Shown one piece after another: positions 5,380 to 44,777 of a stretch of DNA of 64,000 nt. Origin of the DNA: Nitrospinia bacterium (lineage in GTDB: Bacteria; Nitrospinota; Nitrospinia; Nitrospinales; JAJDAT01); assembly GCA_029261715.1 (NCBI GenBank), contig JAJDAT010000049.1, positions 296,778 to 360,777 on the forward strand, in the 5' to 3' direction. Below the pieces are notes generated by a model, which ran no database searches, was not told the DNA's origin, and worked only from the letters and a program-made list of their open reading frames with translations. The position numbers and the translations under genes are program-made. The first letter of the stretch is position 1; every line of letters begins with the position of its first letter.

Positions 5380-8300
5380 ATGAAAATCATCCGAATATTT
5401 ACTAAAAATCTCAAAGATCCATTTGAAGCTTTTAATTTTGTTGAGCGTACTTCAAAAATTACCAACACGGATGGTTCTACCGTTTCCGAAATGAAGGAGT
5501 TAATTGCTCCTGACTCTTGGTCTCAAGTTGCGGTAGATATCATGGCCCAAAAGTATTTCCGGAAAGCGGGAATTCCATATAATTTGAAAAAGAAATTAGA
5601 AGAGGGAGTGCCAGAATGGCTTTGCCCCTCAGTTCCTGACTTTACAGCGCTAAATCAATTGCCAAAAGCTAGTCAATATGGTGGGGAAACTGACGCAAGA
5701 CAGGTTTTTCGACGTTTGGCCGGTTGTTGGACTTATTGGGGATGGAAGAATAACTACTTTGAAGATGAAGAGTCCGCCCAGGTTTATTTTGATGAAATGT
5801 GTTTTCAGTTGGCGGGTCAATTAGCCGCTCCAAACTCACCTCAATGGTTTAATACGGGCTTAAATTGGGCTTACGGGATAGAAGGTCCCGCCCAAGGTCA
5901 TTACTATTATGACTCGGATATGTCTAAGGTAGTGCAATCGAAATCAGCTTATGAAAGACCTCAGCCTCATGCTTGTTTTATCTTGTCGTGTGAAGATAAT
6001 TTGGTTAATGAAGGCGGCATAATGGATTTGTGGCGTCAAGAAGCCCGTTTATTTAAGTACGGTTCAGGTAGCGGTACTAACTTTTCTAGTCTTCGCGGCG
6101 AAGGAGAACCTCTTTCAGGGGGCGGCAAGTCCTCTGGCTTGATGAGCTTTTTGAAGATTGGCGATCGAGCGGCTGGAGCTATAAAATCTGGTGGGACCAC
6201 GCGAAGAGCGGCAAAGATGGTGACTTTGGATATTGATCACCCTGATATTGAAGAGTTTATAGAGTGGAAGGTAAAAGAAGAAAGAAAAGTGGCCGCTCTT
6301 GTTGCTGGTAGTAAGATTACCCGAAAAAGATTGAAGCAGGTTATCAAAGCTTGTTGGGCTGAAGAAGACGAAGCCTTGCGTTTCGATTTGCAACAGAATC
6401 GAGATTTGCGCAGAGCTGTTAAGCAGGGATTAGATGATTGTATTCCTGAAAATTATATTTATAGGGTGATTCAGTTAGCTAAGCAGGGAGTTCGAGATAT
6501 TGAGTTTGATGAATACGATACTAATTGGAATTCAGAGGCCTATGCCACAGTTTCTGGTCAAAATTCGAATAATTCGATTCGACTCACAAATGAGTTTTTG
6601 AGGGCTGAGGAGTGTGGCGGCGATTGGAATTTATTAAACCGGGTTGATGGGAAAGTTAACAAGACTGTTTCTGCCGATAGTTTGTGGGAAAAAATAAATG
6701 AATCAGCTTGGGCTAGCGCTGACCCTGGATTGCAGTTTGATACGACGATCAATGAATGGCATACCTGTCCAGAGGGAGGTCGAATTCGAGCTTCGAATCC
6801 TTGCTCTGAGTATATGTTTCTAGATAATACAGCCTGCAATTTGGCTTCATTGAATTTGATTAAGTTTTTTGATGCAAAGAACGGCAAGTTTGCTATTCAT
6901 AACTTTAGGCATGCTTGTAGGCTTTGGACATTGACCTTGGAGATCTCGGTGGCAATGGCTCAGTTTCCAAATAAAGCTATTGCAGAAAAAAGCTTTGATT
7001 ATAGGACCTTGGGGTTAGGTTATGCGAACCTTGGTTCTTTATTGATGGTTTCTGGTATACCGTATGATTCTGAGGAAGCTAAGTCTATTACAGGGACTAT
7101 AACGGCTTTGTTAACTGGGGCTTCTTATTCGATGTCGGCGGATATGGCAAAGGAGCAAGGGGCTTTTTCTGAGTATGAATCGAATAAGTCTCATATGTTA
7201 AGGGTTATGAGAAATCATAGGAGAGCTTCGTATAATGATTCAGAGCAAGAGTATGAAGGTCTTACGGTATTCCCAAGAGGGATTAAGCCTGAGTTTTGCC
7301 AAGACTCTCTTTTAAGGGCGGCAAAAAAGGAATGGGACGACGTTATAGAAAAAGGCGAAAGATTTGGTTTCAGGAATGCTCAGGTAACCTGCATTGCTCC
7401 GACAGGGACAATTGGTTTATTGATGGATTGTGACACCACTGGGATTGAGCCTGATTACGCTTTGGTTAAATTCAAAAAGCTTGCTGGTGGAGGGTATTTT
7501 AAGATTATAAATCAGTCCGTTCCGTCAGCTCTTAATCATCTTGGTTACAGTGATGATGAAGCGGAAGAAATTGTAAAATATTGCGTAGGATCTGGGAGCT
7601 TAAATGATTCGCCTTTTATTAACCGGGAATCTTTAAAGAAAAAAGGGTTTAGCGATAAGGTTTTAGAAAAAATCGAGACGGAGCTTCCGAAGGTTTTTGA
7701 TATTTTATTTGCTTTTAATAAGTTCACGCTTGGCGAAGAGTTTTGTAAGTCTACGTTTGGTATTTCGGAAGCTCAATTGGAATCGCCCGCATTTAACTTT
7801 TTAGAATTTATTGGCTTTTCGTCTGATGAAATTTCTAAAGCCAACGACGCTATTTGCGGGACAATGACGATTGAGGACGCTCCTCATCTGAAAGAAGAGC
7901 ATTACCCTGTATTTGACTGCGCAAATAAATGTGGCAAATATGGAAAACGTTTTATACCGCATGAAGCGCATATTCGGATGATGGCCGCCGCTCAGCCTTT
8001 TATTTCTGGCGCTATTTCAAAGACTATAAATATGCCGGCTGAGTCTTCTATTGAAGACGTTAAAAAAGCGCATATCCTTTCTTGGAAGCTTATGCTTAAG
8101 GGGACCGCGATTTATCGTGACGGCTCCAAGTTAAGTCAACCTCTTAATAGCGTAACTAATCAAGATTTTAGGATGATTGAAACTGAGGAAGAAGATCGAA
8201 GCAAAAGAAAGGCTCCTGCTCTTACTGTTGCTGAAAGAATTGTCCATCAAATGGGATATCGTAAAAAGCTTCCTTACAGACGAAAAGGATATACGCAAAA

Positions 8301-8982
8301 AGCCATGATTGCCGGCCATAAGGTATATCTACGCACTGGCGATTATGAGGATGGAAGTTTAGGTGAGATTTTCATAGATATGCATAAGGAGGGAGCGGCT
8401 TTCCGGAGTCTTATGAACTGCTTTGCAATTTCAATTTCTTTAGGGCTTCAACATGGAGTTCCCTTAGAAGAGTTCGTAGACGCTTTTGTATTCACTCGTT
8501 TCGAGCCGAATGGCATTGTTTCTGGAAATAAGAATATTAGTATGTCGACATCTATCATTGATTATATTTTTAGAGATCTTGCGATTTCCTACTTAGATCG
8601 TAATGACTTGTCTCAAGTGACTCAGGAAGATTTACGTGCAGACGCTATTCAGAAAGACTCTGAATGCGTCCCCGAAAGTGACAGGCCTGTTGTTGAGCCA
8701 GTTCAAGATTCGAATGTTGCTTTAGAAAAAACAAAGGTAGTTTCTGAAGCTCCAAAAGTAGCGAAGAAAACTAATGGAAACGGAAATGGAAACGGGGCTT
8801 CGTTGCAAAAGAATACGGATGTTGCGGTAGGATTAGCTCAGCCTAAGGTTTCTGCCTTTGAAATAGCTAGAATGAAGGGATATGAAGGCGACCCCTGTAA
8901 TGAGTGCGGTCAGATGACCCTTGTGCGTAATGGAACCTGCCTAAAATGCTTGTCTTGTGGCGCCACTTCAGGTTGTTCTTAA
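5380..8982 (+). CDS. nrdJ: Class II (adenosylcobalamin-dependent) ribonucleotide reductase with C-terminal TSCPD domain and Zn ribbon
   Basis: [37 protein letters not shown]; C-terminal CNECG...CLSCG..SGCS. Confidence 0.97.
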
Positions 8983-9018: not shown

Positions 9019-9051
9019 GCCCTAAACCTCAGTAGTTTAGGGCCGTTCTTT
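9019..9051 (+). terminator. Probable intrinsic terminator of nrdJ
   Basis: GCCCTAAAC-N7-GTTTAGGGC 9 bp stem followed by CGTTCTTT. Confidence 0.6.
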
Positions 9052-9121: not shown

Positions 9122-9150
9122 TTGACACTATTGAACTAAAATAATATACT
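9122..9150 (+). promoter_or_regulatory. Near-consensus sigma70 promoter for the 9.2-13 kb operon
   Basis: TTGACA (9122-9127), 17 bp spacer, TATACT (9145-9150). Confidence 0.8.
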
Positions 9151-9231
9151 CCAAAATTCACATCCTTAGACCTGAAAGAAATTTCAATTTATTACCTAGC
9201 GTTAACCTGGGTATTTGAAGGAGCAAATCCA

Positions 9232-9852
9232 TTGAGCGAAAAAGAAAGTAATCAAGCAGAACAACCAGGAACCGAAGGCGATGAAGAATCCCTTAGAGGA
9301 GATTCGTCTAAAGAAGGTGGTTTAGCCGACCTTAGTGAGTTGGAGAAAATTAAAAAAGAGCTAGAGCTTGAAAAAGTTAAAGCTGCCCAAGAGCTTGAAG
9401 TGGGAGATGAAGATGAAGACGAAGACGCTAGAGAAGCTGATTATCTTCAAAAGTTAATTAATTTAACTATCAAGTTTGATCATCATTTAGGTATGTTTTT
9501 GATGCCTTCATATATTGACTGTGGTTTAAAATATGATCATCGCTTAGTTGAGAGTTATACAACTCAATTGGTTACCATCCAAAGTTTCTTAAGATTGTTA
9601 GAGAAAGTTGATGGGGTTACGCGCGAACAAGTTACCAAAGAGTGCGTTGTTAAATTAAGAAACGTTCTCCAGCAAGTTTCTAAAAACTTGGTAAAACCGC
9701 TTTTTAAAGAAGTAAAGCTCATGAAGAAAAAGCCTAAAATGGAAAACTTAGATACGTTTAAAGATAATTGGAACGATAGATTGCTCGATTTTCAAAAGGT
9801 TTGTGATTTTGAGTATCAGATTTTAGACGTAAAAGGCTTTCAGATAAAATAG
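9232..9852 (+). CDS. Hypothetical protein with acidic N-terminal tail and helical domain
   Basis: 206 aa ORF; AAGGAG SD before TTG; GDEDEDED tract. Confidence 0.85.
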   Translation: MSEKESNQAEQPGTEGDEESLRGDSSKEGGLADLSELEKIKKELELEKVKAAQELEVGDEDEDEDAREADYLQKLINLTIKFDHHLGMFLMPSYIDCGLKYDHRLVESYTTQLVTIQSFLRLLEKVDGVTREQVTKECVVKLRNVLQQVSKNLVKPLFKEVKLMKKKPKMENLDTFKDNWNDRLLDFQKVCDFEYQILDVKGFQIK

Positions 9853-10089
9853 CTTTTAGTTGTTTGTAGAACTTGAAACTGCTTGGAGGGTGGCCATTTC
9901 GTGAGAGATTAATTAGGTTTTTTTGCGAAAATAAACTCGCCGTGGATACAATCGCTTTTTTAAAAACGCGATTGTTTTCCAAGACCTCCAAGAGTTTTCC
10001 CCCCTGGGCGGAATTTTTAAATCGTCCTCATGGCCTTCTGTTAGAAAAAATTCCGAATTAACTTTATTAATAATTATTGCCTGGGAAAA

Positions 10090-11082
10090 ATGGAAAAAGA
10101 CAAAGCCGAAAAAGAAGAATTAGAAGTTGGGCAGAAATTGGTTGCGGTAGAGGAAACTTTACCTGAAGAAAAACCGGTCGTCGATCACTCTAAGTTGTAT
10201 GTTTGGATTGCCGATGCCGGAAATAATCGCATCCAAAAGTTTGACGGGAATGGGAAGTTCTTGATGCAGTTTGGCCGGCCTGCCGGTACGCGAGCTCCTT
10301 ATAATCCAGGTGAATTCAAAACTCCAATGGGAGTTGCGGTCGACTCATATGGGAATATCTGGGTGTCGGATACAGGTTGCCATCGGATACAAAAGTTCGA
10401 CGAAGAAGGTAATTTTCTTCTGGAGTTTGGAGTGGAAGGTTGGGGGCCAGATAAGTTCTATATGCCTGAAGGTATAGCGGTGGAAGCTTCAGGAACCATT
10501 CTTGTTGCCGATACAGCAAATCATTGCTTTAAACGTTTTGACGATGACGGAGAATTTCTTTTAGGTTTTGGTTTTTCGGGCGATTTTGACGGTTTTCTGA
10601 AATATCCTACTGGTGTGGCCCTTGATCGAGAAGGTAATATTTATGTTGCCGATAGAGACAACCAGCGCATTCAAATTTTTAATGAAGACGGCCAATACGT
10701 TTCGAAATTTGGTCAATATGGGTTTGAAGAAGGATTTGTTAATTTCCCAAATGGTATTGTGGTGCGGAAAGACGGCACAATAATCATTTCAGAAAAAAGC
10801 CAAAATCGTTGTCAGGTTTTTGATAACGACGGGAATTTTATTTTAAGCTTTGGTGAGTTAGGCAAACGAGAAGGGCAATTTAATTGTCCGATGTCTTTGT
10901 CCCAAGACCCATATGGTTTTCTCTTTGTCGTAGATACGCTAAATAATCGAATTCAAAAATTTGATAAAGAATTTAATTTTGTAGGTAAATGGGGATCTGT
11001 TGGAAAAGAATCGGGGCAACTTAGAGATCCTGCAGGAATTTGCCTTACATGGGAGCCAGATTGGGCTCCAAAAGACGAATAA
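10090..11082 (+). CDS. Cytoplasmic NHL-repeat six-bladed beta-propeller protein
   Basis: Six P.G(V/I)AVD..G..(Y/W)V.D..N.RIQKFD repeats; no signal peptide. Confidence 0.95.
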   Translation: MEKDKAEKEELEVGQKLVAVEETLPEEKPVVDHSKLYVWIADAGNNRIQKFDGNGKFLMQFGRPAGTRAPYNPGEFKTPMGVAVDSYGNIWVSDTGCHRIQKFDEEGNFLLEFGVEGWGPDKFYMPEGIAVEASGTILVADTANHCFKRFDDDGEFLLGFGFSGDFDGFLKYPTGVALDREGNIYVADRDNQRIQIFNEDGQYVSKFGQYGFEEGFVNFPNGIVVRKDGTIIISEKSQNRCQVFDNDGNFILSFGELGKREGQFNCPMSLSQDPYGFLFVVDTLNNRIQKFDKEFNFVGKWGSVGKESGQLRDPAGICLTWEPDWAPKDE

Positions 11083-11098
11083 GTTTATCTAAACTGTT

Positions 11099-11761
11099 TT
11101 GATAGAATTCGAGAATATGGAAAGACTATTTCCCAGGAGTATTTTGCAAAACTTAGAGTTTAAATGTTTTGGTCTCTATCCGCTTGTCTTAATAATAGTT
11201 TTGTCTTGGACTTTGTTGGGTTCTGTCGCCTTTGGCGATGAGGGATATTATTATGGGCATAAGGTTGAGGTTAAGCCTTCTAAGCCAAAATTGGGGCCTG
11301 ACGGTCTTCCTGTGCCTGAAAGGTTTGCTGATAATGGTGATGGGACAATTACCGACCTCAAAGGAACTCTAATGTGGAAAGCGCGAGACTCCTATCAAGA
11401 AAGAAAAAAGTGGTTGAATTGGCATGACGCGCAAAAATACATCAAAGAAATGAATGAAAAGAAGTTCGCTGGGCATTCAGATTGGCGGTTGCCCTTAAAA
11501 AAAGAACTGAAATCTCTTTATGAGGAAGATAAGGAAATTCCTTGGAAATATTACTGGACAGAAAACGTTGTCCATATTGATCCAGTTTTTGGAGATACTA
11601 GTTGTTGTTTTTGGACTAGCGAGGAATATAAAGAAAAATACGCGTACGGTTTTAATTTTATTAGAGGGCAGGCATACTTAAGCCTCAAAGGTGGTATTAT
11701 GCAATCTTTAACCGTAATACGTCCCGTAAGGGCTTTAGCAAATAAGTCGGCCTCCAAATGA
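11099..11761 (+). CDS. DUF1566 (Lcl C-terminal) domain protein with signal peptide/TM
   Basis: RFADNGDGTITD...LMW...DWRLP..EL; hydrophobic N-terminal segment; start may be ATG at 11117. Confidence 0.9.
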   Translation: MIEFENMERLFPRSILQNLEFKCFGLYPLVLIIVLSWTLLGSVAFGDEGYYYGHKVEVKPSKPKLGPDGLPVPERFADNGDGTITDLKGTLMWKARDSYQERKKWLNWHDAQKYIKEMNEKKFAGHSDWRLPLKKELKSLYEEDKEIPWKYYWTENVVHIDPVFGDTSCCFWTSEEYKEKYAYGFNFIRGQAYLSLKGGIMQSLTVIRPVRALANKSASK

Positions 11762-12564
11762 GCGATCAAAATAATTTAGAAGAGCAAGAGAAAGAAAATA
11801 AGGACCTTGTGGAAGATGAAGATCTTGAGCTTGAAGAAAATGAACTTCTAGAAGATGAGGAGCCAGATTTACAGGAAGAGCTTGATGATGAGGAAGTTGA
11901 ATTTGACGTAGAAGCTCAAATTGAGCTTTTTAGGCAACAGATTGAAGAAGAGCCTGATAATTGTATTCACCATTATAATTTAGGCGAGGCTCTAGAGGAA
12001 CTGAGGCATTACGATGAAGCTCTAGAAGAATTTCAGATAGCATTGAAATGCGATGAAGATAATTCCTTTGGAGGAGTGATTCATTTTGGGTTAGGTAATT
12101 TATATTACAATCAACTCTTGAGCGGAGCCTCTTCAAGCGTAATTAAAAGCTCTATTGGTTTGATGAATGAGCATAAGGATAAAGATTCAATAACAGAGGT
12201 TCTGGCTGAAGATTATCAAAATCCAATTAGTGAATTTGAACGGGCTTTAGAATGTTTGCCGATGCTTAAAGCGGATGATGACTTAGCGGAATATATTTCA
12301 GAAAATGCTCCCTTATCAATAGCTAATATTTATTATAAGTGGGCATCTGATTTAGTCGATAAGTCGAGACAGATTATCCATTATGGTGATGAGATAAATG
12401 ATATTAAGAGAGCTTTAAAGCACTTAAAGAAAGTTTTAGAAATTGATCCAAACAATTCTCCTGCCGCCCTCTTGGAAAAACTGGGGAAAAAAATGCTGGC
12501 AGAAGGATGGATGATCTATGATGAATACGGTTTTGAAGCAAAAAATATTCAAGGCATAGGTTAA
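11758..12564 (+). CDS. TPR-repeat protein with highly acidic N-terminus
   Basis: HYNLGEAL...ALEEFQIAL and LKKVLEIDPNN TPR motifs; ATGA overlap with the upstream gene. Confidence 0.9.
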   Translation: MSDQNNLEEQEKENKDLVEDEDLELEENELLEDEEPDLQEELDDEEVEFDVEAQIELFRQQIEEEPDNCIHHYNLGEALEELRHYDEALEEFQIALKCDEDNSFGGVIHFGLGNLYYNQLLSGASSSVIKSSIGLMNEHKDKDSITEVLAEDYQNPISEFERALECLPMLKADDDLAEYISENAPLSIANIYYKWASDLVDKSRQIIHYGDEINDIKRALKHLKKVLEIDPNNSPAALLEKLGKKMLAEGWMIYDEYGFEAKNIQGIG

Positions 12565-12598
12565 TCGTTGTTAAAGTAGAAAAGGATTAAAGAGAAAT

Positions 12599-12994
12599 AT
12601 GGCCGATATTTTAGAATTAATTAATGAGCGGTTGAGCAAAGACGGTCAGGTTTTGAATCTAAAAGCCCAATTTATTCGTGAAGTAGGAGCAAGGAAGCTG
12701 GCGGAATGTGAGGAGCTTTCGAATTTACGAGCGTTGGATTTAACTCAAAACGCAATTGGAGACGATGGAGCTAAGGCTATAGCAGAGTCACCTCATTTTT
12801 CCAAAGTTAGGACTTTGAATTTAAAATCGAATGGAATCACTGATATTGGCGCTGAGTACCTTGCGAATTCTAAAACTTTGAAAAGCTTAAAAAGCCTACA
12901 GTTAGTGGTCAATGATATTTCAGAAAAAGGCGAAAAGCTGTTGATTAATTCTAAAAGTTTAACAAGTTTGACTTCCTTGAAGTTTCGAGTTTGA
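12599..12994 (+). CDS. Small RI-like leucine-rich repeat protein
   Basis: LRALDLTQNAIGDDGAKAIA-type 28-residue repeats. Confidence 0.9.
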   Translation: MADILELINERLSKDGQVLNLKAQFIREVGARKLAECEELSNLRALDLTQNAIGDDGAKAIAESPHFSKVRTLNLKSNGITDIGAEYLANSKTLKSLKSLQLVVNDISEKGEKLLINSKSLTSLTSLKFRV

Positions 12995-13088
12995 GTAATT
13001 TTATTTTGAAAAAGCAATAGAATTAATGCCTTGTAACTTGTTGTTTTTTGAGTCCTTATGGTGTGTGCTGAAAATAGTAAAATAGCGC

Positions 13089-13117
13089 TTGACTTATTTT
13101 GCCCATTTTGATACTTT
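13089..13117 (+). promoter_or_regulatory. Sigma70 promoter with extended -10
   Basis: TTGACT (13089-13094), 17 bp spacer, TGnTACTTT ending at 13117. Confidence 0.6.
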
Positions 13118-13245
13118 CGGTCCACAATCAAAGCCCAAAGACCCGGGCATAAAAAACGAATATTAGGGTTCTTAGCCAATTTGAATATTTGTTAGGGATT
13201 ATTTGGAGTTAGTTTAACTTTTCAATTTTTTGAAAGGGGGAGACC

Positions 13246-13737
13246 ATGATGAGAAGGACGACTACCGTGGTTATCACGGCGTTAGCGTTTTTTGCGCTTA
13301 CCTCAATTGCTGCTGCTAATGTTTCAACTTTAAAAGCTGGCGAGACGAGTGTATGTGAAGACGCTTCTTGGATTATCTACAATGTAAGTGAGTCTGATAC
13401 CACCAATGTTCAGTTTGATATTGGACCTCATTCTTATGGTTGGGGTAAATGGTACAAAAGAGACTTAACGCCTGGCGGGTATCAAACCAATGCTATTGCT
13501 GTTAAGACAGATTTTAAAAACAATGGCCCTGGAGTAGTTCAAGTCAACTGCCAACGCCAACGTTTTGATCGCCATGACTGGAAAATTGATGCTGGTTCTG
13601 GTAAAACTTACCAAAGCGACTACCATATGGACCATGTTCGACCTGGTACGTATGTTGAGCCTGGTTTAGGATTGCCTGAAGGTACGGAAAGAGGAATTTT
13701 CTCTAACCAAAACCAAAAGCCAGAGCATCAAAGATAA
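13246..13737 (+). CDS. Secreted/periplasmic hypothetical protein
   Basis: Sec signal peptide ending ...IAAA; GGGGGAG SD; two Cys; own promoter and terminator. Confidence 0.9.
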   Translation: MMRRTTTVVITALAFFALTSIAAANVSTLKAGETSVCEDASWIIYNVSESDTTNVQFDIGPHSYGWGKWYKRDLTPGGYQTNAIAVKTDFKNNGPGVVQVNCQRQRFDRHDWKIDAGSGKTYQSDYHMDHVRPGTYVEPGLGLPEGTERGIFSNQNQKPEHQR

Positions 13738-13754
13738 GCCGTATTTAGTTTTAT

Positions 13755-13792
13755 AAAAGCCGGAGGGGTTTTCCCCTCCGGCTTTTTTTTTT
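13755..13792 (+). terminator. Strong intrinsic terminator
   Basis: AAAAGCCGGAGGGG-TTTT-CCCCTCCGGC followed by T10. Confidence 0.95.
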
Positions 13793-14129
13793 GGCTTTAA
13801 TAAAAGTGTAAAAAAAAATACTAAAAGGTTCTCTTAAAACTGTTATGCCTGTCGGTTAAAAAGCTTAGCTTTATTTTGACGAATAAAGATATGCTGGCAA
13901 AAGTAGAGCAATGGGTAGAGCGTTTTTAATGGAATCTGTTCAAGATTGGTTATATTGAAGAAGGCTGTTTTTTTGCAAGCTTGTGCGTTTGACAAGAGAC
14001 TAAGGTTGAAAATTTATTTGATTTTTTAGTAAGAGAAAAATAGGATTATACTAATAGAAGAAATTGGTTTTAAATATTTGAGAGTATATTATTTCCAGCG
14101 AAACAGTAGACTTTTGAATGGTTTTTGCC

Positions 14130-14158
14130 TTGAAAATTGCGTTCGCTGATGGTACTTT
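14130..14158 (+). promoter_or_regulatory. Sigma70 promoter upstream of the DUF1566 array
   Basis: TTGAAA (14130-14135), 17 bp spacer, TGnTACTTT ending at 14158. Confidence 0.55.
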
Positions 14159-14335
14159 ATCAAGATTCGATTTTAATTTTGGTTGAATCTTTCTAGGGAA
14201 GCACTCTAATTATTGGCATATGTTGTCTTGGGAAGTTTGGCTCTTTATAGTAGGAGCCGAAATACTTTTTATTTCCGGGAAAACCGTCGATAGGGGTGTT
14301 TTTTTTATTTCAAGCTGATTGGTTTGGTTTTAATT

Positions 14336-14773
14336 ATGACTCAAGTGTCAAATTTTAAAGATAATGATGATGGTACTGTGACCGATCTTGAAGAAGATCT
14401 CTGTTGGTGCAAAAAAGATTCTAGAGCAGAGCTTGAAAAATGGCTTAACTGGGATGAATCCATGGAATATGTCCGCGTATGTAACGACCAAAAATACTTG
14501 GGCTTTGGAGATTGGAGAATACCGACCAAAAGTGAACTGCGGGCTTTGCTAAAAAATAAGAAAGACTATCGGCAAATATTTTTGAATGAACCTCCTAAAG
14601 CAAATCGTAAAGTATCCGATTATAAATCGGGAGGAGAACAGAGTCTTTGGAGTTCCGAGACTAGATATGGGTCGTATGCATGGAAATCGTATTTTCCTTC
14701 TGGTAAAGAGGTATGTGTTGATCAAAGCGTAGCGACAACCGGCACTTCAGTGCGTCTAGTTCGAGATATTTAA
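14336..14773 (+). CDS. DUF1566 domain protein
   Basis: FKDNDDGTVTD..LCW..GDWRIPTKSEL; ATG at 14336 preferred over TTG at 14324. Confidence 0.9.
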   Translation: MTQVSNFKDNDDGTVTDLEEDLCWCKKDSRAELEKWLNWDESMEYVRVCNDQKYLGFGDWRIPTKSELRALLKNKKDYRQIFLNEPPKANRKVSDYKSGGEQSLWSSETRYGSYAWKSYFPSGKEVCVDQSVATTGTSVRLVRDI

Positions 14774-14843
14774 TAGCTGATTTATAATTTTTTATTTATA
14801 AAATTAATAACTGCACCAGTTTTATAATATATAGGTGGTTTTT

Positions 14844-15479
14844 ATGGGCGATGAAAATCTAACAGATCAAGGGGAAGATGAACTTGATAAAACCGACCAA
14901 ACTGTGGAAGATTCCGTAGAAGACGAAGACCATGTAGTCGACGAGTGGGAGGGAGACGAAGGTTGGGGGGAAGAGGATGAAGAAGAAGACGATCTAATAG
15001 CTCCAGACCTCCCTAGTTATGTAGATAACGGAAATGAAACTATCAGCGACGCGCGTAACAATGTTATGTGGGCTAAATCAGATTCTTTTGAAGAATTTAA
15101 GTACGGTATTAATTGGTATGAAGCTCATGATTACTGCGAAAGCTTAAATGAAAAAAAGTTTGCAGGGTTTGATGATTGGAGGTTGCCGGGATTTGATGAA
15201 GCTAAAACTTTATTTTCCTTTGATAAATCGAACTACGATAAAGATGACGCTGAAATTCATATTGATCCGCTGTTTGAGTCCAACGGTGGGCATAATACTT
15301 GGACTTATGAAGAAAAGCCGGATTATCATCAATACGCCATGAAGTTCAGTTATATTACTGGAAATGAAATGTGGGAAAACAAAGATAATGAATACTCCCA
15401 TGTAAGGGCTGTTCGAGACGAGATAAAAGACGATTGGGAACCTGAATGGAGAAAAGATTCCAAGAAGTTCGCTGGGTAG
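14844..15479 (+). CDS. DUF1566 domain protein with acidic N-terminal tail
   Basis: YVDNGNETISD..VMW..DDWRLP; AGGTGG SD before ATG at 14844. Confidence 0.9.
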   Translation: MGDENLTDQGEDELDKTDQTVEDSVEDEDHVVDEWEGDEGWGEEDEEEDDLIAPDLPSYVDNGNETISDARNNVMWAKSDSFEEFKYGINWYEAHDYCESLNEKKFAGFDDWRLPGFDEAKTLFSFDKSNYDKDDAEIHIDPLFESNGGHNTWTYEEKPDYHQYAMKFSYITGNEMWENKDNEYSHVRAVRDEIKDDWEPEWRKDSKKFAG

Positions 15480-15561
15480 TTTCATATATTGTGTGAAGCA
15501 TTAAACAATAAGTTTTTACTGATTCTTTATATTGATAAATAATTTTTTCGGAATATAGCGT

Positions 15562-15780
15562 ATGAGTAATTATATGATTTTTGGGAAAAGAGATTGTCCG
15601 CATACTCAGAAAGCGCTGGCCGATTATAAAAAAGATTTAAAATCTTTTATTTTTATCGACGTTGATAATAATCCACGTGGTTTAGAACAATTATTAGAAT
15701 ATTCTAATGGAAAGCATATTGTTCCTGTGATTGTTAACGTTGACGAAGGAAACGTAGAGATTGGCTATACTGGCGATTAA
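15562..15780 (+). CDS. Small glutaredoxin-like protein (CPHT), Uxx-star-like Cys form
   Basis: IFGKRDCPHT...VPVIV...VEIGY thioredoxin-fold signature. Confidence 0.8.
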   Translation: MSNYMIFGKRDCPHTQKALADYKKDLKSFIFIDVDNNPRGLEQLLEYSNGKHIVPVIVNVDEGNVEIGYTGD

Positions 15781-15881
15781 ATTTTTTTCAATTTTTCTAC
15801 CAATATCGGAAGTTATGAAAAAAGATCTGACATTGGGTCTAAGGTTTTTTTAGACTTTAAAAGTGGGGGGTAATTAGTTGC

Positions 15882-16385
15882 ATGAGCGATTTACCAGAAG
15901 TAAAAAAAACCGATGAACAAATTGAAAAAGTTGAAGACGAAGGTCCTAAACGTTTTATTTCAAAAGGTCCATTTGTTGTTTACGATACGGAAACGGGTAT
16001 TTCTTGGATGAAAAAAGATTCCTGGCAAGATAAAGGAAAATTTTTTAATTGGCATGAATCTAGAGATTATGCGGACGCAAAAAATATTCGGAAAATTGGT
16101 AAATTTGAGGATTGGCGATTACCTTTGCCGGATGAAGCGCAGACATTATTTGTTAAAGAAAAAGAAATTGTTGGAAAAGGAGGAGTCGCCCTTTACTTAG
16201 ATCCTGTTTTTCCAGAAGGCGCTTTTAAGACTTGTTGGGTTGCTGGTGATACTTCGACTAAAAGACCTCGTTTTGATTTTTCAGAAGGAAAGATGCTAAC
16301 AGTCGAAGAATATAGTTTTGGAAGTGTGCGGTTATGTCGAAAAGATGGTGTTGGTAAAGCGAGACGTTCTTTGCAGCGTAAGTAG
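15882..16385 (+). CDS. DUF1566 domain protein
   Basis: VYDTETGISW..DSW..EDWRLP..VRLCR. Confidence 0.9.
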   Translation: MSDLPEVKKTDEQIEKVEDEGPKRFISKGPFVVYDTETGISWMKKDSWQDKGKFFNWHESRDYADAKNIRKIGKFEDWRLPLPDEAQTLFVKEKEIVGKGGVALYLDPVFPEGAFKTCWVAGDTSTKRPRFDFSEGKMLTVEEYSFGSVRLCRKDGVGKARRSLQRK

Positions 16386-16411
16386 TAAAAACTTAAAGAT
16401 TATATTGAATT

Positions 16412-16855
16412 ATGAGTTCTGACGATTCAACTGAGCAACGATTTATTGATTGCGACGAAGACACGGTTTTTGATATTAAGACCCGGTTAATGTGGTTTAA
16501 AAAAGACACTTGGCAATTAAGTGGCAAATGGTTGAGCTGGGTTCAATGTCGAGAGTTGGCAGAAGATCAAAACAAAAAAAGAACTTTAGGTTTTTCAAAT
16601 TGGAGAATTCCAACTACTGCAGAGGCAAAAAGTATTTACGAGAAAAGCCAATCCAATAAAGATCATATGGGGCAAACCGCTTGGTTACATAAGGTGTTTA
16701 ATCCCGGTTTCGGTTTTATGTGCTGGACGAGCGATGTAAGAAATAAGATTCAAGCTGTTAGGTTTAGCTATAGGAAAGGCGGAACTATGTACGATGACGT
16801 TTATAGAACGTCTCGAGGTTCGACTCGTTTCGTAAGAAATTTAAAAGACGATTGA
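16412..16855 (+). CDS. DUF1566 domain protein
   Basis: RFID..TVFD.KT.LMW..SNWRIPT.AEA..RFVR. Confidence 0.9.
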   Translation: MSSDDSTEQRFIDCDEDTVFDIKTRLMWFKKDTWQLSGKWLSWVQCRELAEDQNKKRTLGFSNWRIPTTAEAKSIYEKSQSNKDHMGQTAWLHKVFNPGFGFMCWTSDVRNKIQAVRFSYRKGGTMYDDVYRTSRGSTRFVRNLKDD

Positions 16856-16868
16856 AAAAGAGGATAGT

Positions 16869-17777
16869 TTGGAAATAACACAGAAAAATAGATTTGTAGA
16901 TAATGGCGACGGTACTGTAACGGATGTTGACTCTGCCTTAATGTGGGCTAAAGGTGATTCCTGGTTAGAATTGGAAAGATATATTACCTGGGTAGAAGGT
17001 CAAGACTTTGTTGTGGCAAAGAATAAAGAAAAGTTTGCAGGGTATTCAGATTGGCGCGTTCCAAATGCTAAAGAAGCTAAAACACTTTATGTCTATGAAT
17101 CAATAAACACCGACAAAGATGGATGCGAAGTTCATATTGATAAATCGTTTTCTTCAGGTTGTGGATACACTACCTGGACTAGCGAGACACGGGCTGCGAA
17201 GCAGGCGATGGGTTTTGATTTTCGCGACGATTATGAGTATTGGCTAGATAAAGATCACGACTCTTCATCGAGTAATGTTCGGCTGGTACGAAGCGTCGGA
17301 GCAGAAAACTCGATGATTATTACCATTGATGACGGACAGGGCGGTGTTGAAGAAGTTAGCCGTTTTGTTGATAATCGAGATGGCACTATTAGCGATCTAC
17401 AAACAAACCTTATGTGGTCAAGACTTGACTCTTTATTAGAACTAGATAAATGGGTTAGTTGGGATGAAGCAAAAGTTTATGTTAAGGAATTGTGTAGAAA
17501 TAAATTTGCTAAATTTGACGATTGGAGAATGCCAACGAAGAAGGAAGCTTTAAGCATTTATTGCCCAGGTCATGCAACTACTGATGTTTATGGAGATACT
17601 GTCTATGTACCTCAGGTGTTTCCAGCTGGTTGTGGTGTTACTACTTGGACAAGGACGCTAAATAAAAGCGACGAACGCTTGGCTATGCGTGTATTTTACT
17701 ATAATGGCGATTTTAAATGGTATAAACGGGGACTCCGAAGTCATGGAATCAGACCTGTTCGACCTATAAAAGGATAA
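16869..17777 (+). CDS. Tandem two-domain DUF1566 protein
   Basis: Two copies of RFVDN.DGT..D...LMW...DWR.P; AGAGGA SD before TTG. Confidence 0.92.
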   Translation: MEITQKNRFVDNGDGTVTDVDSALMWAKGDSWLELERYITWVEGQDFVVAKNKEKFAGYSDWRVPNAKEAKTLYVYESINTDKDGCEVHIDKSFSSGCGYTTWTSETRAAKQAMGFDFRDDYEYWLDKDHDSSSSNVRLVRSVGAENSMIITIDDGQGGVEEVSRFVDNRDGTISDLQTNLMWSRLDSLLELDKWVSWDEAKVYVKELCRNKFAKFDDWRMPTKKEALSIYCPGHATTDVYGDTVYVPQVFPAGCGVTTWTRTLNKSDERLAMRVFYYNGDFKWYKRGLRSHGIRPVRPIKG

Positions 17778-17790
17778 ATTCTTTAGACTC

Positions 17791-18213
17791 ATGGAAAAAA
17801 GATTTTCAGATAACGGAGATGGTACGGTCACAGATCACGAAATGAAGTTGATGTGGAAACAAACTGACGGTTTTCAGGACGATGGCGAGTTTATGAACTG
17901 GTACGACTCGATTAAATATTTGAGAAATCTAAATATTGACGAGTTTGCTGGGTTTAATGATTGGAGACTACCAACTTTAGAAGAAGCTCAAGGTCTTTAT
18001 GACCCTGAAAAACGAATTCGGGATATGGATAGGTTCGAAATTTTTATTGATCCTAGTTTTTCTCCTGGAGGCTCTTATACGTTATGGACTAGCGATGAAA
18101 AGCCTTTTGAAAACGCCGTAGTTTTTTATTATAGATACGGCTACGAGGATCTTGCTCAAAAGTTTGGAGCTTATAATAAATGTAGCGTGAGAGCTATACG
18201 CTCAGTAGAATAA
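17791..18213 (+). CDS. DUF1566 domain protein
   Basis: RFSDNGDGTVTD..LMW..DWRLPTLEE..VRAIR. Confidence 0.92.
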   Translation: MEKRFSDNGDGTVTDHEMKLMWKQTDGFQDDGEFMNWYDSIKYLRNLNIDEFAGFNDWRLPTLEEAQGLYDPEKRIRDMDRFEIFIDPSFSPGGSYTLWTSDEKPFENAVVFYYRYGYEDLAQKFGAYNKCSVRAIRSVE

Positions 18214-18259
18214 TGGTGATTTTTAAAAGATCTGTTAATTTTTAAAAAGGAATTAAACC

Positions 18260-19000
18260 ATCGAATCTTATCGTATTATAAATCAGCAAGAGAGTCAGAA
18301 TTCTGTTCTCACATACAGGTTTGAAGAAGAAGATTTTGAAAATCTCTACGTTTTGGAAGACTATTATCATACTAATCCGTTTTGTGATTATCAAAACACA
18401 TTGATTTCGTTTAGAGATAGCGAAAACCCAGAAAATCGAATTTCGTTTTTACTTGGGTTTAAAAAAACGTACACACTTCCTCCTAACCAGCCTACATTGA
18501 CCAATGTGCAAACGGAAATTGTGAAACGTTTTGTTAAAGAAATACCAGATGAATTAATGGTTTTATTTAAGCAACGCTACTTCGAGGCAAAAGCTTACGG
18601 AGAGAAAAATCCAATGTCCTATTTGGAGTTTGAACCAGGTCGACTTTTTACTTATGTTGAGCTTTTTCCAAAGGCTAATAAGCCAGTAGAGTTTGCTTTA
18701 GATACGGTTAAATATTTAGTCGAAGATTCGTATGATATTGATCCAAATAATAAGAATCGAACGGTTAAGTTAGCGTTTTATAAGTTAGATTTAGAAGAGG
18801 AAAATAAGCCGCCTGTTTTTAGCTATACATATTATTTTAAAGAAGAGCTAAGGGTGGCAGAAGATAATAAAATTCCTGAAGACCAGAGCGCAGTAGTAGT
18901 TGCGTTAAATGCTAGTATTCCAAACTTAAGGAATTTACTGAAAGATCGTTATCGCGACGCTAAGAATATTGGCGAAGAATTATTGCAAAAAAGCGCCTAA
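18260..19000 (+). CDS. Hypothetical protein with internal duplication; probable non-canonical ATC start
   Basis: Frame stays open 31 codons upstream of TTG 18353 to an ATC at 18260, preceded by an AAGGAA SD and an in-frame TAA at 18254. Confidence 0.75.
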   Translation: MESYRIINQQESQNSVLTYRFEEEDFENLYVLEDYYHTNPFCDYQNTLISFRDSENPENRISFLLGFKKTYTLPPNQPTLTNVQTEIVKRFVKEIPDELMVLFKQRYFEAKAYGEKNPMSYLEFEPGRLFTYVELFPKANKPVEFALDTVKYLVEDSYDIDPNNKNRTVKLAFYKLDLEEENKPPVFSYTYYFKEELRVAEDNKIPEDQSAVVVALNASIPNLRNLLKDRYRDAKNIGEELLQKSA

Positions 19001-19069
19001 AAAAATAATTGGTTATTTTTCGATTTCAAAAAAACCGTGTGAGTTAATTCAATCTTTACGAGAACTGCT

Positions 19070-19630
19070 ATGTCGTCAAAAGTTAGAAAAGTTAAGAAAG
19101 TTCAAGCAAGGCACATTTTAGTTGCTGACAAAGAATTGGCTCTTGAACTTAAGAAACGATATGAGGATGGCGAAGATTTTGCGGAGTTAGCGCAACAGAA
19201 TAGCGAGTGTCCTTCAAAAAAACGTGGCGGTGATTTAGGTTGGTTTGGAAAGGGCGCTATGGTTCGTCCTTTTGAAGTGGCCGCTTTTTCTGCGGAAGAA
19301 GGTGCGGTTACCGATCCGGTTAAAACGGAATTTGGTTGGCATTTAATTTATGTTTATGAAGTTAAAGAGGATGCTGACCCAGATGCAGGGCCTCCAACTG
19401 GAGACGAAGATGCAGATGAAAAAACTCTACGATTAGTGGCGGAAAATTATGCCCATGAGTTTATGATGTTAGGGTATTCCAGTAAAAAAGTACTCAGTCT
19501 TTTTACTAGCCAACATTTTAAATCAGCGAATGTTGTTTATAATATTCTTGGTAAAGAAATTATTAACGAAATCATCGCAAAAGTATATGGAGTTAAGTTT
19601 GAAAAAAAGCCGGAGGATTCTAGCGAATAA
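19070..19630 (+). CDS. Parvulin-type peptidyl-prolyl isomerase fused to a C-terminal domain of unknown function
   Basis: ARHILV, S.CPS..RGGDLGWF, PVKTEFGWH; acidic linker and about 70 extra residues. Confidence 0.93.
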   Translation: MSSKVRKVKKVQARHILVADKELALELKKRYEDGEDFAELAQQNSECPSKKRGGDLGWFGKGAMVRPFEVAAFSAEEGAVTDPVKTEFGWHLIYVYEVKEDADPDAGPPTGDEDADEKTLRLVAENYAHEFMMLGYSSKKVLSLFTSQHFKSANVVYNILGKEIINEIIAKVYGVKFEKKPEDSSE

Positions 19631-19819
19631 TTTATTTTCAAACTAGTTGGTATTTATTTAATTTTTTATCTTTCCTTCCAAAATTACATCTGTTTTTCCT
19701 ACCGTCATTTTTCATTAGTCCAAAGAAATATTTTCTAAGTTCTCAAATAAATTGATAAGTTACTAGAAGTATTTTCTAAACCCAAATTTGATGGGTTTAA
19801 AATATTTTGAGTGAATATA

Positions 19820-36405: not shown

Positions 36406-37431
36406 TTGATGTCTAGTTTAAAAGTTTTAATCGTAGAAGACAGTTTAATGGTTCAGGAAGTTTTAAAGGAAATACTTTCTTCCGATCCAGAAATTGAAGT
36501 GGTTGGAGTCGCTGGAAATGGTCAAGAAGGAATCCAAAAAGTCGAAAAATACAAGCCAGATATTATTACGCTTGATATCAATATGCCAATAATGAATGGT
36601 TTGGATGCCATTGAGGAAATAATGGGAAGTCAGCCGCTTCCAATTTTAGTCGTTTCTAGCTCGGAAGACGCCAAAACGGCTTTTGACGCTTGTTCTAGGG
36701 GAGCGTTAGAGGTATTTCCTAAGAGTAAACTCGATGCCGCTAGGGCAGACGTTTTAATTCACAAAGTTAAATTATTATCCAAAATAAAAGTTATTCGTCG
36801 ATTTAAGAAGAGAAACAGCAGAGTTGCAATTCCAGATTTCAATACGGCGCCAGCAACTGAATCGAAGTTTGAAAAAGTAGTGGCTATAGCTTGTTCCACC
36901 GGAGGACCAAAGGCTCTTTCGGTTATTTTATCTGAGTTAAGTCCTCAATACCCTTTCCCAATAGCAATTGCGCAACACATGGAAAATGGTTTTGGAGAGG
37001 GTTTTGCGGCTTGGTTAAACGACATCTCAACTAATCCTGTTTGTGAGGCTAAAGAAGGAGATTATTTGGCTTCTGGGAAAGTATATGTTTGTCCCCCTGA
37101 ATCTAATATGCAAGTTGCAACAGATGGGAGAATAAGTTTTCTTGGTGTCAATGAAATGAATTCTTTCAGGCCGTCTTGCGATATTTTATTAGCCTCTTTA
37201 GCGTATTCATTTCGAGAGAAAAGTGTTGGATTGATATTGTCAGGAATGGCAGATGATGGAGTAGCTGGAATTGAAAAGATTAAAACTAGCGGCGGGACAA
37301 CCATTGCTCAGGATGAAGAAAGTAGCGTTGTTTTTGGTATGAATTCGCGGGCAATCAATGCGGGAGTTATCGAAAGAGTTTTGCCATTAAACGAAATCGC
37401 AATGTATCTCAATCAAATAGCAAAGAGATAG
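36406..37431 (+). CDS. cheB: Chemotaxis response regulator protein-glutamate methylesterase
   Basis: REC domain plus IACSTGGP, IAQHM, SGMADDG. Confidence 0.97.
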   Translation: MMSSLKVLIVEDSLMVQEVLKEILSSDPEIEVVGVAGNGQEGIQKVEKYKPDIITLDINMPIMNGLDAIEEIMGSQPLPILVVSSSEDAKTAFDACSRGALEVFPKSKLDAARADVLIHKVKLLSKIKVIRRFKKRNSRVAIPDFNTAPATESKFEKVVAIACSTGGPKALSVILSELSPQYPFPIAIAQHMENGFGEGFAAWLNDISTNPVCEAKEGDYLASGKVYVCPPESNMQVATDGRISFLGVNEMNSFRPSCDILLASLAYSFREKSVGLILSGMADDGVAGIEKIKTSGGTTIAQDEESSVVFGMNSRAINAGVIERVLPLNEIAMYLNQIAKR

Positions 37432-37434
37432 TTA

Positions 37435-38925
37435 ATGACTATTGAAACGATTAATCAGGGAATAGATGTTTTGCCTTTTAGGCAACTTTTGATTGATCGA
37501 ATATCTACGGGGTACAAAGAAGATACGTTGAATCAATTGCCTGCGGCAATAGTTCAGCGGATGGAATTGAATCAAATAATTAAACCGGCTGAATATTTTT
37601 TTCTTTTACAGAAAGACAACGCTGAATTTACAAAGTTAGTAAACTTGTTAACTGTAAATGAAACCTATTTTATGAGAGAACAGGGGCACTTTAATGTTCT
37701 AGTTAACCGTTTATTCCCGGAATTTATCAAAAATAGAAAAGGTAACGAAAAGTTTAAAATATTGAGTGCAGGATGCTCTTCTGGGGAAGAGTTGTATTCC
37801 GCTTTGATTTCCTTAACTTTAAAGTTTGGCAAAGAAATATTAAAAACGATACATGCCGAGGGAGTTGATATTGACTCTGAAATATTAGAAAAAGCTAAAA
37901 AAGGAATTTATTATCAAAATTCTTTTAGGAATGTTGATACTTACTTTATCGACGCTTTTTTCTCAGAATATGAAGAGCAATATAAAATTAACGAAAATTT
38001 TTTAGATTCTGTTTTTTTTAGTCAAGTGAACCTTGCGGACTCAAGTTTCTCATTTGATTCAAAGTGGAACGTGATTTTCTACCGCAATGTTTCGATCTAT
38101 TTCGTTCCAGAAATTAGAAAAGAAATATTTAATAATTTGGTAAATGCGTTGAAAGAACCAGGATATTTATTTACAGGGATTGTTGAAACAAGTCATCACA
38201 ACTTTGGTATTTTGCCGTTAGAAGAAATAGACGATCATTATTTATTTAATAAGAAAAGTGAATTTTTTAATAAAAATAGTATACGGCCTGATAAATTTAA
38301 GAAAGCTAAGCGAGATTTACCCTACAAAAAGAAGACTCAAAAATTATTTTCTGGTTCTCAGCAAGAAAAACTTAAGAAAGATAATTCAACAAGGAAAATA
38401 ACAAAGGAAGATTCCTATGAGGAAGCTTTTCAAAAAGCTTTGGGATTAGCTAAAAGAGGACAAAGACAAAAAGCTTTAGAGAGTATTGAAAGTATTTTTA
38501 CTAAATGGACTCCTAACGCCAACGATTATTTGTTACGCGCTAATATTTTAGTTAGTTTAGAGAAGTTGGATCAAGCTTTAACTGATTGTTTGACTGCATT
38601 GGAAATTGAAGAATGGAATCGCCAGGCATATTTGCTTTTGGGTATTATTTCTCGTTTGAAAAAAAATATTCCGGAAGCGGTTAAGCGCTTTAAAGGAGCT
38701 ATTTATATTGAATCGACCTGTTGGTTATCTCATTTTTATCTTGCCGAGATATTTATAGAAAATGAGAACTTTAGGGACGCAAAAAGAGAATATGGAATAT
38801 CGCGAAAGCTGTTATTAGAATCGGGTAGCTCTGAATGTGGTTTGATGATATTTCCTCTTTCATTTAATCAGGAGCAGCTAGTCCATCATTGTGAACGCAA
38901 ATTAGGCGAACTGGAAAAGCGCTAA
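37435..38925 (+). CDS. cheR: CheR methyltransferase with C-terminal TPRs (WspC-like)
   Basis: NETYFMRE, SAGCSSGEE, IFYRNV.IYF, then TPRs. Confidence 0.95.
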   Translation: MTIETINQGIDVLPFRQLLIDRISTGYKEDTLNQLPAAIVQRMELNQIIKPAEYFFLLQKDNAEFTKLVNLLTVNETYFMREQGHFNVLVNRLFPEFIKNRKGNEKFKILSAGCSSGEELYSALISLTLKFGKEILKTIHAEGVDIDSEILEKAKKGIYYQNSFRNVDTYFIDAFFSEYEEQYKINENFLDSVFFSQVNLADSSFSFDSKWNVIFYRNVSIYFVPEIRKEIFNNLVNALKEPGYLFTGIVETSHHNFGILPLEEIDDHYLFNKKSEFFNKNSIRPDKFKKAKRDLPYKKKTQKLFSGSQQEKLKKDNSTRKITKEDSYEEAFQKALGLAKRGQRQKALESIESIFTKWTPNANDYLLRANILVSLEKLDQALTDCLTALEIEEWNRQAYLLLGIISRLKKNIPEAVKRFKGAIYIESTCWLSHFYLAEIFIENENFRDAKREYGISRKLLLESGSSECGLMIFPLSFNQEQLVHHCERKLGELEKR

Positions 38926-38935
38926 AACTTTACCT

Positions 38936-41296: not shown

Positions 41297-41382
41297 TTTT
41301 TATATATACCTGAGCTAGAATTATACGTGAACGTTTTAATCTTAGTTACAATTAGGGAAATGAATTAGAAAGCGGAAAAAGA

Positions 41383-43632: not shown

Positions 43633-43695
43633 TAATTTTGCGACAAAAGACATTTTTGATTATTCATTTTAGTTTGAAGAGTATGGGGGATTGCT

Positions 43696-44744: not shown

Positions 44745-44777
44745 ATTTGTAATTGCATAATAATTAAGAGGTGGATT

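Follow-up and report, generated by a model that had tools for sequence, protein, structure and literature searches.

The window analysed here is a stretch of 64,000 nucleotides from contig JAJDAT010000049.1 (C49) of a Nitrospinales (Nitrospinota) genome, assembly GCA_029261715.1, which measures 5.3 Mb and is 97% complete. The subject of this study is a cluster of 15 genes at positions 9232 to 19630 of that window, all on the forward strand, seven of which encode proteins with the DUF1566 domain (Lcl_C, PF07603). Each open reading frame (ORF) was taken to begin at the first start codon that follows a stop codon, which makes all of them maximal. A Pfam search matched PF07603 in seven ORFs and eight domains, all on the forward strand, with 43.0 to 129.3 bits against a gathering score of 34.9 bits, which bears out the count given in the original prediction, a reading made from the letters of the sequence alone. 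The NHL, TPR, LRR, glutaredoxin and parvulin partners named there were likewise all matched by Pfam (at 10090, 11758, 12599, 15562 and 19070), and two further members that it had left unnamed, at 9232-9852 and 13246-13737, are both conserved.

The first part of the cluster follows a promoter-like site at 9122-9150 (TTGACA-17-TATACT, 11 of 12 consensus positions, a consensus match only), itself downstream of a terminator-like hairpin (9019-9043) that follows the ribonucleotide reductase gene. It begins with an acidic protein of 206 amino acids (aa; 9232-9852, isoelectric point 4.9) without Pfam or NCBIfam match. Next comes a beta-propeller protein of NHL repeats (10090-11082, Pfam NHL E=3.8e-39), whose N-terminal tail is acidic and which lacks a signal peptide. 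It is followed by D1 (11099-11761, 76.3 bits), the exported DUF1566 copy, whose N-terminus carries a hydrophobic signal or anchor. The D1 gene overlaps by 4 nt that of a TPR protein with a very acidic N-terminal region (11758-12564, Pfam; net charge about -47). A small LRR_6 (RNI-like) protein of 131 aa without signal peptide (12599-12994, Pfam LRR_6 E=7.1e-15) and a secreted protein of 163 aa with a signal peptide and no Pfam match (13246-13737) complete the series, which ends at an intrinsic-terminator-like hairpin with a T-run (13755-13796; stem 13755-13786, 14 pairs, 9 of them G-C) that is conserved in the genus alignment.

The second part carries the remaining DUF1566 genes, all of them leaderless in the sense of lacking a signal peptide. 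Behind a promoter read from alignments (14130-14158) and a structured 5' leader recognised by its fold and conservation (14165-14323) lie the near-neutral D2 (14324-14773, 69.2 bits), D3 with a poly-acidic N-terminal tail of about 65 residues (14835-15479, 71.3 bits), and a glutaredoxin-like protein of 72 aa from the Uxx-star family (15562-15780, Pfam Glutaredoxin 25.2 bits). They are followed by the near-neutral D4 (15882-16385, 43.0 bits), D5 with a strongly basic domain (16412-16855, 55.3 bits), the two-domain D6D7, in which D6 is acidic and D7 basic (16869-17777, 129.3 bits in two stretches), and D8 with an acidic domain (17791-18213, 63.8 bits). The last two genes encode a protein of 215 aa that belongs by profile homology to a SEC-C-motif family and has no Pfam match (18353-19000), and a parvulin-type, PpiC-like peptidyl-prolyl isomerase with a C-terminal extension of about 85 aa (19070-19630, Pfam Rotamase E=4.8e-23). 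A terminator-like site stands at 19777-19799. From the promoter-like site at 9122-9150 and the terminators at 13755-13786 and 19777-19799, the locus reads as two transcription units, unit 1 from 9232 to 13737 and unit 2 from 14324 to 19630. Spacings of -4, 13, 13, 16, 26 and 34 nt occur within the units, and such short distances suggest coupled translation. Unit 1 is of mixed compartments, as D1 and the 13246 protein bear signal peptides in all orthologues examined and the NHL and LRR proteins do not.

Export signals were called by a hydrophobicity heuristic and not by SignalP. In the six DUF1566 ORFs from 14324 to 17791 just 10 to 67 polar or acidic residues precede the domain, and the best 12-residue Kyte-Doolittle window reaches at most 1.07, versus 2.83 in D1. 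The export signal that a surface adhesin should have is thus absent from six of the seven DUF1566 ORFs and present in D1 alone, where a signal-peptide-like N-terminus is found in all 18 orthologues; the gene at 11099 was indeed singled out by the original prediction as the only one with a signal peptide. As the ORFs are maximal, signal peptides hidden in D2 to D8 are impossible barring frameshifts, and re-annotation, the step at which the prediction thought such peptides might appear, brings none to light by the same heuristic. Two of its gene starts need qualification: 14336 and 14844 are ATG codons as described, but the longest ORFs begin earlier, at 14324 (TTG) and 14835 (GTG). The motif [H/Y/F][I/L]DP.F, said to be present in most copies, occurs in only half of them, namely four of the eight domains (HIDP, HIDP, YLDP and FIDP), with HIDK in one and nothing comparable in three.

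In order to follow the cluster through relatives, I mapped reciprocal best hits in 26 related loci from Nitrospinales and Nitrospina genomes and metagenome-assembled genomes (MAGs). All 15 genes are present in 18 of the 26 loci, at 41-98% amino-acid identity, so that the co-location noted in the window holds among relatives as well. Of the other eight loci, seven are interrupted by contig ends and one, L022, is split. In this record, a MAG labelled as a complete chromosome, only the six distal genes from D4 to PpiC stand together, D1-TPR-LRR are placed about 540 kb away, and the glutaredoxin-like gene was not found when searched with the window's protein; the split is either a real separation or a fault of assembly. 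Conservation extends to the single partners. The 9232 protein keeps its position in 20 loci (60-93% identity), the LRR_6 protein at 12599 shows 66-98% identity in 21 loci, and the parvulin has the same position in all 18 complete loci (75-97% identity in 12 extracted orthologues). The N-termini of the NHL protein are acidic and non-hydrophobic in 20 orthologues, and the signal peptide of the 13246 protein is conserved in 20.

Upstream of the cluster, at 5380-8982, the window encodes a ribonucleotide reductase of class II (B12-dependent), 1200 aa long, whose C-terminal part has a TSCPD domain and a tail rich in Cys. This gene precedes the cluster only in the window's genus, and the flanks differ in other loci, which delimits the conserved unit to 9232-19630. 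Within it, other families have one extra leaderless DUF1566 gene, D0, between the 13246 gene and D2, and the order D4-D6D7-D5-D8 as against D4-D5-D6D7-D8 in the window's genus. Of 101 other Nitrospinales genomes, 93 hold exactly one copy of the 18353 gene, and most of those in which it was missed are incomplete; the gene occurs in none of 18 genomes from other orders of the class. The locus is retained in nearly all Nitrospinales genomes examined. That the cluster is under selection throughout the order is firm, and the description as a whole, of a real, ancient, order-wide and leaderless cluster, is very probably right. The original prediction knew of no described system with this layout, and a literature search, which covered titles and the openings of abstracts and, by search terms, the main texts of the Nitrospina genome papers PMC3578206 and PMC8026999, turned up no account of it.

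The leaderless DUF1566 proteins are not confined to the cluster. The whole genome has 27 PF07603 matches, and of its 25 DUF1566 ORFs eight have a hydrophobic N-terminus and 17 do not; six of the 17 belong to the cluster and 11 are scattered. The 41 Nitrospinales genomes searched each hold 17 to 28 PF07603 matches, versus 0 to 7 in five genomes of sister orders, and in three of those five 16 of 16 DUF1566 ORFs carry a hydrophobic stretch before the domain (hydropathy at least 1.7). With 17 of 25 leaderless here and 0 of 16 there, the leaderless copies look, judging from these ORFs, like an innovation of the Nitrospinales. The 11 scattered genes adjoin a DnaJ-type gene, groES-groEL, aroK, aroC, alr, nadC, acs and others, neighbourhoods that show no common theme. 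The copy beside the DnaJ-type gene, which lies on the opposite strand (contig C5, 12111-12932; L027, 4112-4936), has a Lys/Ala/Pro-rich N-terminal tail of 65 residues, and the one at groES-groEL (contig C47, 86131-86574; L036, 4129-4551) follows groEL by 425 nt on the same strand.

The age of the paralogues in the cluster was assessed with a maximum-likelihood tree of 53 domains, comprising the 27 of this genome and the cluster domains of three other loci (L006, L012 and L021). Each of D1 to D8 forms its own clade with its counterparts from the three loci, with ultrafast bootstrap (UFboot) values of 97-100, and the deep branching among these clades is unresolved in this tree. A leaderless gene of the window's genome, on contig C25 (488267-488815), forms one group (99/84) with the D0 of other families, so that the ninth paralogue has been relocated here and not lost. 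A remnant of D0 in the gap at 13787-14323 was considered and rejected, as the gap holds no ORF and the orthologue is on another contig. Mean column identity within the orthogroups is 71-73%. The C-terminal third holds residues invariant within orthogroups, yet it is there that the paralogues diverge most from one another, as the original prediction had noticed for the C-terminal face.

Net charge behaves in the same orthogroup-specific manner. In 9 to 25 orthologues per group the domain charge is conserved at -11 for D3 (about that value in all 19 orthologues), -7 for D8 (mean of 23), -4 for D6, +4 for D7 and +9 for D5 (mean of 25), and lies near 0 in D0, D1, D2 and D4. The copies are diversified, and six of the seven genes leaderless, as the original prediction had said; what does not stand is any notion of a recent or variable diversification, as the orthogroups are fixed and ancient. 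The alignments speak for a hard-wired, ancient set under purifying selection and not for a fast-evolving one. A role as target of a diversity-generating retroelement (DGR) was also rejected: the single reverse-transcriptase match (RVT_1) of the genome is on contig C20 and not on C49, which excludes retroelement-driven diversification at this locus, and the C-terminal regions are conserved among orthologues.

Expression of unit 2 seems to start from a conserved site. The 540-nt spacer before D2 contains no ORF, and its last 200 nt or so show 83% mean column identity in five genus-level sequences, the rest not being conserved. At 14130-14158 the alignments point to a promoter of the extended -10 type, TTGAAA-17 nt-TGn-TACTTT, and the same motif lies upstream of D2 in other families as well; it was absent from the consensus scan because its -10 hexamer matches just three of six positions. 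The leader, about 170 nt long, would fold into a long imperfect hairpin at about 14197-14298, followed by eight U residues (14299-14306) some 20 nt before the D2 start, with a fold z of -3.89 and none of 200 shuffles as stable. Weak matches to the leader were found by nhmmer at the same position in eight further loci. Rfam 15 gave no match in 14000-14330 at E<=1, all seven sub-threshold hits falling on the terminator (13658-13873). A joint cross-family alignment yields a consensus of eight pairs only, and a within-family alignment 31 pairs with few compensatory changes. A within-family covariance model matched three of five genus-level leaders (L001-L003, E 0.02-0.8), L004 and the window being unmatched at E<=1. 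A small ORF in the leader was rejected as non-coding, since a 1-nt indel shifts its frame between the window and L001-L003. I infer that the leader is either of the terminator type, attenuator or riboswitch-like, or a small RNA gene.

The partner proteins differ in how much can be said of them. The redoxin at 15562 scores above the cut-off of NF041114, the 'UXX-star selenoprotein family 1' (74.6 bits, cut-off 72), and below that of NF041212 (60 bits, cut-off 66). Its single invariant Cys lies in DCP[HYN]T, and the Sec or Cys that the family name leads one to expect three residues before the stop is absent. A selenoprotein reading was rejected, as the protein ends in ...GYTGD followed by TAA and a TGA-x-x-stop arrangement is found in 0 of 22 orthologues. 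The parvulin at 19070 reaches 82.4 bits with cut-offs of 21.7 and 22.5 (PF00639/PF13616). LRR_6 matches number 33 in this genome, whereas none of 14 control genomes has one, and the window's LRR protein has 53 matches in a 2.5-Mb relative (the L022 record). Repeat families as in the cluster recur at 53067-59436 on the reverse strand of the window, beside signalling and protease domains, in a row of CheW, a caspase-like C14 peptidase, two LRR_6 proteins and an NHL (teneurin-type) protein of 717 aa. On the forward strand, 36406-47347 holds a chemotaxis-like cluster of CheB, CheR, a CheA-CheW-REC hybrid, a REC-GAF-PAS-adenylate/guanylate cyclase, CheW, an ORF of 163 aa and MCP.

The 18353 gene could be traced furthest. 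The SEC-C zinc motif (PF02810) is present in 19 of 22 aligned orthologues and absent from the window's protein and two orthologues of the same genus, a pattern by which the genus has evidently lost the C-terminal motif. In SecA, this motif binds SecB and ribosomes. The N-terminal 210 residues or so are homologous over their full length to the SEC-C relatives, and a profile run against 1.84 billion representatives returned 278 proteins at E<=1e-10. The full-length relatives measure about 290 aa, all 14 of those scanned carry SEC-C, one is fused to DUF1186/HEAT, and one member of the family's clusters is named from a Spirochaetia MAG. The family consensus (proteins P0006-P0061) has two YCxNPxCxC repeats, degenerate in Nitrospinales, and no Pfam model describes the N-terminal part. 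By this homology the gene belongs to a wide, uncharacterised SEC-C-motif family. A predicted structure (pLDDT 69.7) had no Foldseek match in the PDB at E<=0.001. Outside Nitrospinales, SEC-C family genes were found with DUF1566 in 0 of 80 metagenome loci (481 kb), a scan that was keyed on the SEC-C motif and included only six true full-length relatives.

For the fold of the DUF1566 domains, a profile of 22 Nitrospinota proteins found the Lcl C-terminal domain 8q4e (E=6.5e-5) as its only solved relative, and a profile of D8 orthologues gave nothing meaningful among PDB sequences at E<=1. An AlphaFold2 model of D6D7 is weak (pLDDT 66.3, pTM 0.44). Aligned by VIA-align with 48,161 chains, it is most similar to 8q4e_A (Z 5.8, root-mean-square deviation 4.1, 99 residues, 23% identity), a Z that lies, like all values under 8, in the range which the tool calls 'common'. 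TvpA, TaqVP and Mtd come next, then Bd2740, FGE-like enzymes and C-type lectins, with modest scores, and Foldseek returned nothing for the model at E<=0.001. A complex prediction for D6D7 and D8 (score 0.00, mark 0.32) counts neither for nor against binding. The window itself encodes an FGE-sulfatase family protein (48853-49923, reverse strand; PF03781, E=4.6e-51) of the same lectin/FGE-like fold class.

Lcl of Legionella pneumophila shares the Pfam family PF07603 with the cluster proteins. According to its structural description, the Lcl C-terminal domain is a trimer with a C-type-lectin-like fold without disulfides, and the authors suggest that DUF1566 could favour trimerisation or the recognition of carbohydrates (PMC11162425). 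Lcl is a surface adhesin, a type II secretion substrate found at the cell surface on a collagen-like stalk, and its basic upper face binds sulphated glycosaminoglycans of the host; the cluster, by contrast, is an order-wide conserved operon of a free-living chemolithoautotroph, with six of seven genes lacking a signal peptide, no stalk, and predicted net domain charges from -11 to +9. The variable proteins of DGRs (TvpA 2y3c, TaqVP 5vf4, Mtd 1yu0) have a fold class in common with the D6D7 model (Z 4.0-4.7), and surveys of these elements reportedly list DUF1566 as a target domain. Their variable region is C-terminal, where the cluster paralogues differ most. However, DGR proteins have a retroelement nearby and the cluster has none, its C-terminal parts being conserved within each orthogroup, so that its diversity is hard-wired and ancient and not generated. 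The DUF1566 surface proteins of Leptospira are likewise a multi-copy family in one genome; they are described as exported lipoproteins or adhesins of a pathogen, unlike the cluster copies without signals. The Lsa25 model NF047850 gives weak partial matches only (E=2e-6 to 3e-4, 20-31 bits, cut-off 260).

The established view that DUF1566 is usually found in exported or surface proteins, which the original prediction took over, turned out to be too strong. Within the cluster, two products (11099 and 13246) are exported. Longer DUF1566 relatives are fused to TIR, protein kinase, caspase-like C14, UvrD-like helicase, ankyrin and EF-hand domains, and four of 11 fusions checked have no membrane-like segment (TIR, P0175 and P0237; kinase, P0216; ankyrin, P0178). 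These TIR, kinase and ankyrin fusions, from Desulfobacterales, KSB1 and others, are predicted from their sequences to be used inside cells, as the cluster copies are, and soluble fusions in other phyla mean that intracellular use of DUF1566 occurs elsewhere. The difference is that each fusion is one large polypeptide that includes an effector or signalling domain, whereas the cluster proteins stand alone, with 140-300 aa, in an operon without effector. The domain family is known, and the cluster puts it to a leaderless, multi-paralogue, operon-encoded use.

The reading I prefer is that of an order-wide housekeeping locus of the Nitrospinales, in two units, which encodes a fixed and non-redundant set of lectin-fold (DUF1566/Lcl_C) proteins. 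D1 would be exported, and D2, D3, D4, D5, D6-D7, D8 and the relocated D0 would remain in the cytoplasm as binding modules produced together in fixed proportions. They may assemble with one another into hetero-oligomers, in the manner of the related Lcl domain in its trimer, with complementary acidic and basic subunits aiding assembly, and possibly also with the acidic, NHL, TPR and LRR proteins as scaffolds. Assembly or handling would fall to the parvulin, the monothiol glutaredoxin-like protein and the SEC-C-family protein, and the output of unit 2 could be gated by premature termination in the conserved structured leader. Hetero-oligomers are proposed because the genes are coupled, D6 and D7 are fused, the charges are conserved and complementary, and the Lcl trimer offers a precedent. 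The cytoplasmic location, the oligomers, the ligand, the roles of the partners and attenuation are all of them what I infer, and the mechanism of hetero-oligomeric intracellular binding modules is a tentative one, with a real but clearly less than even chance of being correct.

Several observations weigh against this reading. Unless the L022 assembly is faulty, its split means that the 15 genes need not be contiguous, and D0 has departed from the cluster in the window's genome. The 11 scattered copies are as compatible with independent functions as with a complex. These genomes hold many NHL and LRR_6 proteins, which makes the presence of such proteins in the cluster less specific than it appears. 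The SEC-C tail is dispensable in the window's genus, and SecB was not found in the 97%-complete genome. The C-terminal third of both domains in the D6D7 model is below a pLDDT of 50, so that no interface, pocket or inter-domain packing can be read from it, and covariation in the leader is too sparse for proof of its structure.

Alternatively, the DUF1566 genes may be neighbours through old tandem duplication, each leaderless protein acting alone and forming no joint system with the partners. That 11 of the 17 leaderless copies lie beside unrelated genes, together with the relocation of D0, the split in L022 and the commonness of repeat proteins of these kinds, is what one would expect in this case. 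However, mere descent does not readily account for a gene content kept in 18 of 18 unsplit full-length loci, across families at 45-80% identity, with an order that is kept too except for the positions of D5 and D6D7. Neither does it account for the very short intergenic spacings with one overlapping pair, the common conserved promoter and leader of unit 2, or the fact that the blocks surviving the L022 split (D1-TPR-LRR and D4-to-PpiC) are mixed in family and not made up of paralogues only. I consider this explanation doubtful, though it deserves to be taken seriously.

An intracellular sensor array, in which each domain recognises a different molecule and relays the signal to other proteins and the NHL, TPR and LRR proteins are co-sensors or adaptors, is suggested by the DUF1566 fusions to TIR, kinase, caspase-like C14, helicase and ankyrin domains in other lineages, four of 11 without membrane-like segment, and by the row of CheW, caspase-like, LRR_6, LRR_6 and NHL genes at 53067-59436. 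I regard it as improbable, as Pfam and NCBIfam find no effector or signalling domain in the cluster, the strict single-copy conservation across the order is unlike that of variable conflict systems, and there is no DGR nearby, the single reverse-transcriptase match being on another contig. PADLOC-DB 2.0 does not speak for it either, and a defence system was rejected: of 15 proteins tested, 14 had no match there, all the DUF1566 proteins among them, and the NHL protein gave one weak partial hit (E=1.5e-4).

Export of the leaderless proteins independently of a Sec signal peptide, followed by action at the surface, with the SEC-C protein and the parvulin as targeting or folding helpers, would agree with two characterised or named members of the family, Lcl (PMC11162425) and Lsa25, which are surface or secreted proteins. 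The 16 of 16 sister-order ORFs with a hydrophobic N-terminal stretch, the SEC-C motif of the 18353 orthologues and the two exported proteins in unit 1 point the same way. However, genes for a secretion system are absent from the cluster and from beside it, SecB was not found in the genome, the genus has lost the SEC-C tail and kept the rest of the cluster, and signals are likewise lacking in the poly-acidic tails and in the NHL, LRR and TPR neighbours; I regard this route, too, as improbable. Small-molecule binding, or a reduced FGE-like fold that catalyses or holds substrates in a pathway linked to thiols, with the redoxin as partner, has only a small chance of being right: the fold matches after Lcl include PvdO, ToxD, EgtB, SenA and OvoA (Z 3.3-4.5), the redoxin is of the Uxx-star glutaredoxin-like (seleno)protein family and D6 has a conserved Cys before its invariant Trp, but these Z scores lie within the tool's common range, an FGE domain is about twice as large as the DUF1566 domain, Pfam finds no metal-binding or DinB partner domain in the cluster, the D6 Cys is not conserved in D7 or D8, and the redoxin lacks a C-terminal Sec or second Cys.

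In its boldest form, the reading would have an extracellular adhesin fold turned into an intracellular multi-subunit assembly, in which seven to eight different lectin-fold subunits of fixed charge, together with the acidic, NHL, TPR and LRR scaffolds, make up a cytoplasmic structure or adaptor complex specific to the lineage, governed by a new class of terminator-type leader RNA. I hold this full version to be unlikely; if true, it would amount to a bacterial cell-biological machine of a new kind and not to a variant of a surface adhesin. The conserved leader is a candidate for a new regulatory RNA, whose trigger would point to the function of the locus. The finding also corrects the idea that DUF1566 serves only at the surface or in adhesins, and it offers small, soluble and hard-wired natural variants of a fold that DGRs use for binding. 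The Nitrospinales are the main nitrite oxidisers of the ocean and carry out most of the nitrite oxidation there, and no function is known for much of their conserved gene content. With about 17 leaderless lectin-fold genes in each genome they stand apart from their sister orders, and this order-specific set points to a lineage-defining piece of their cell biology.

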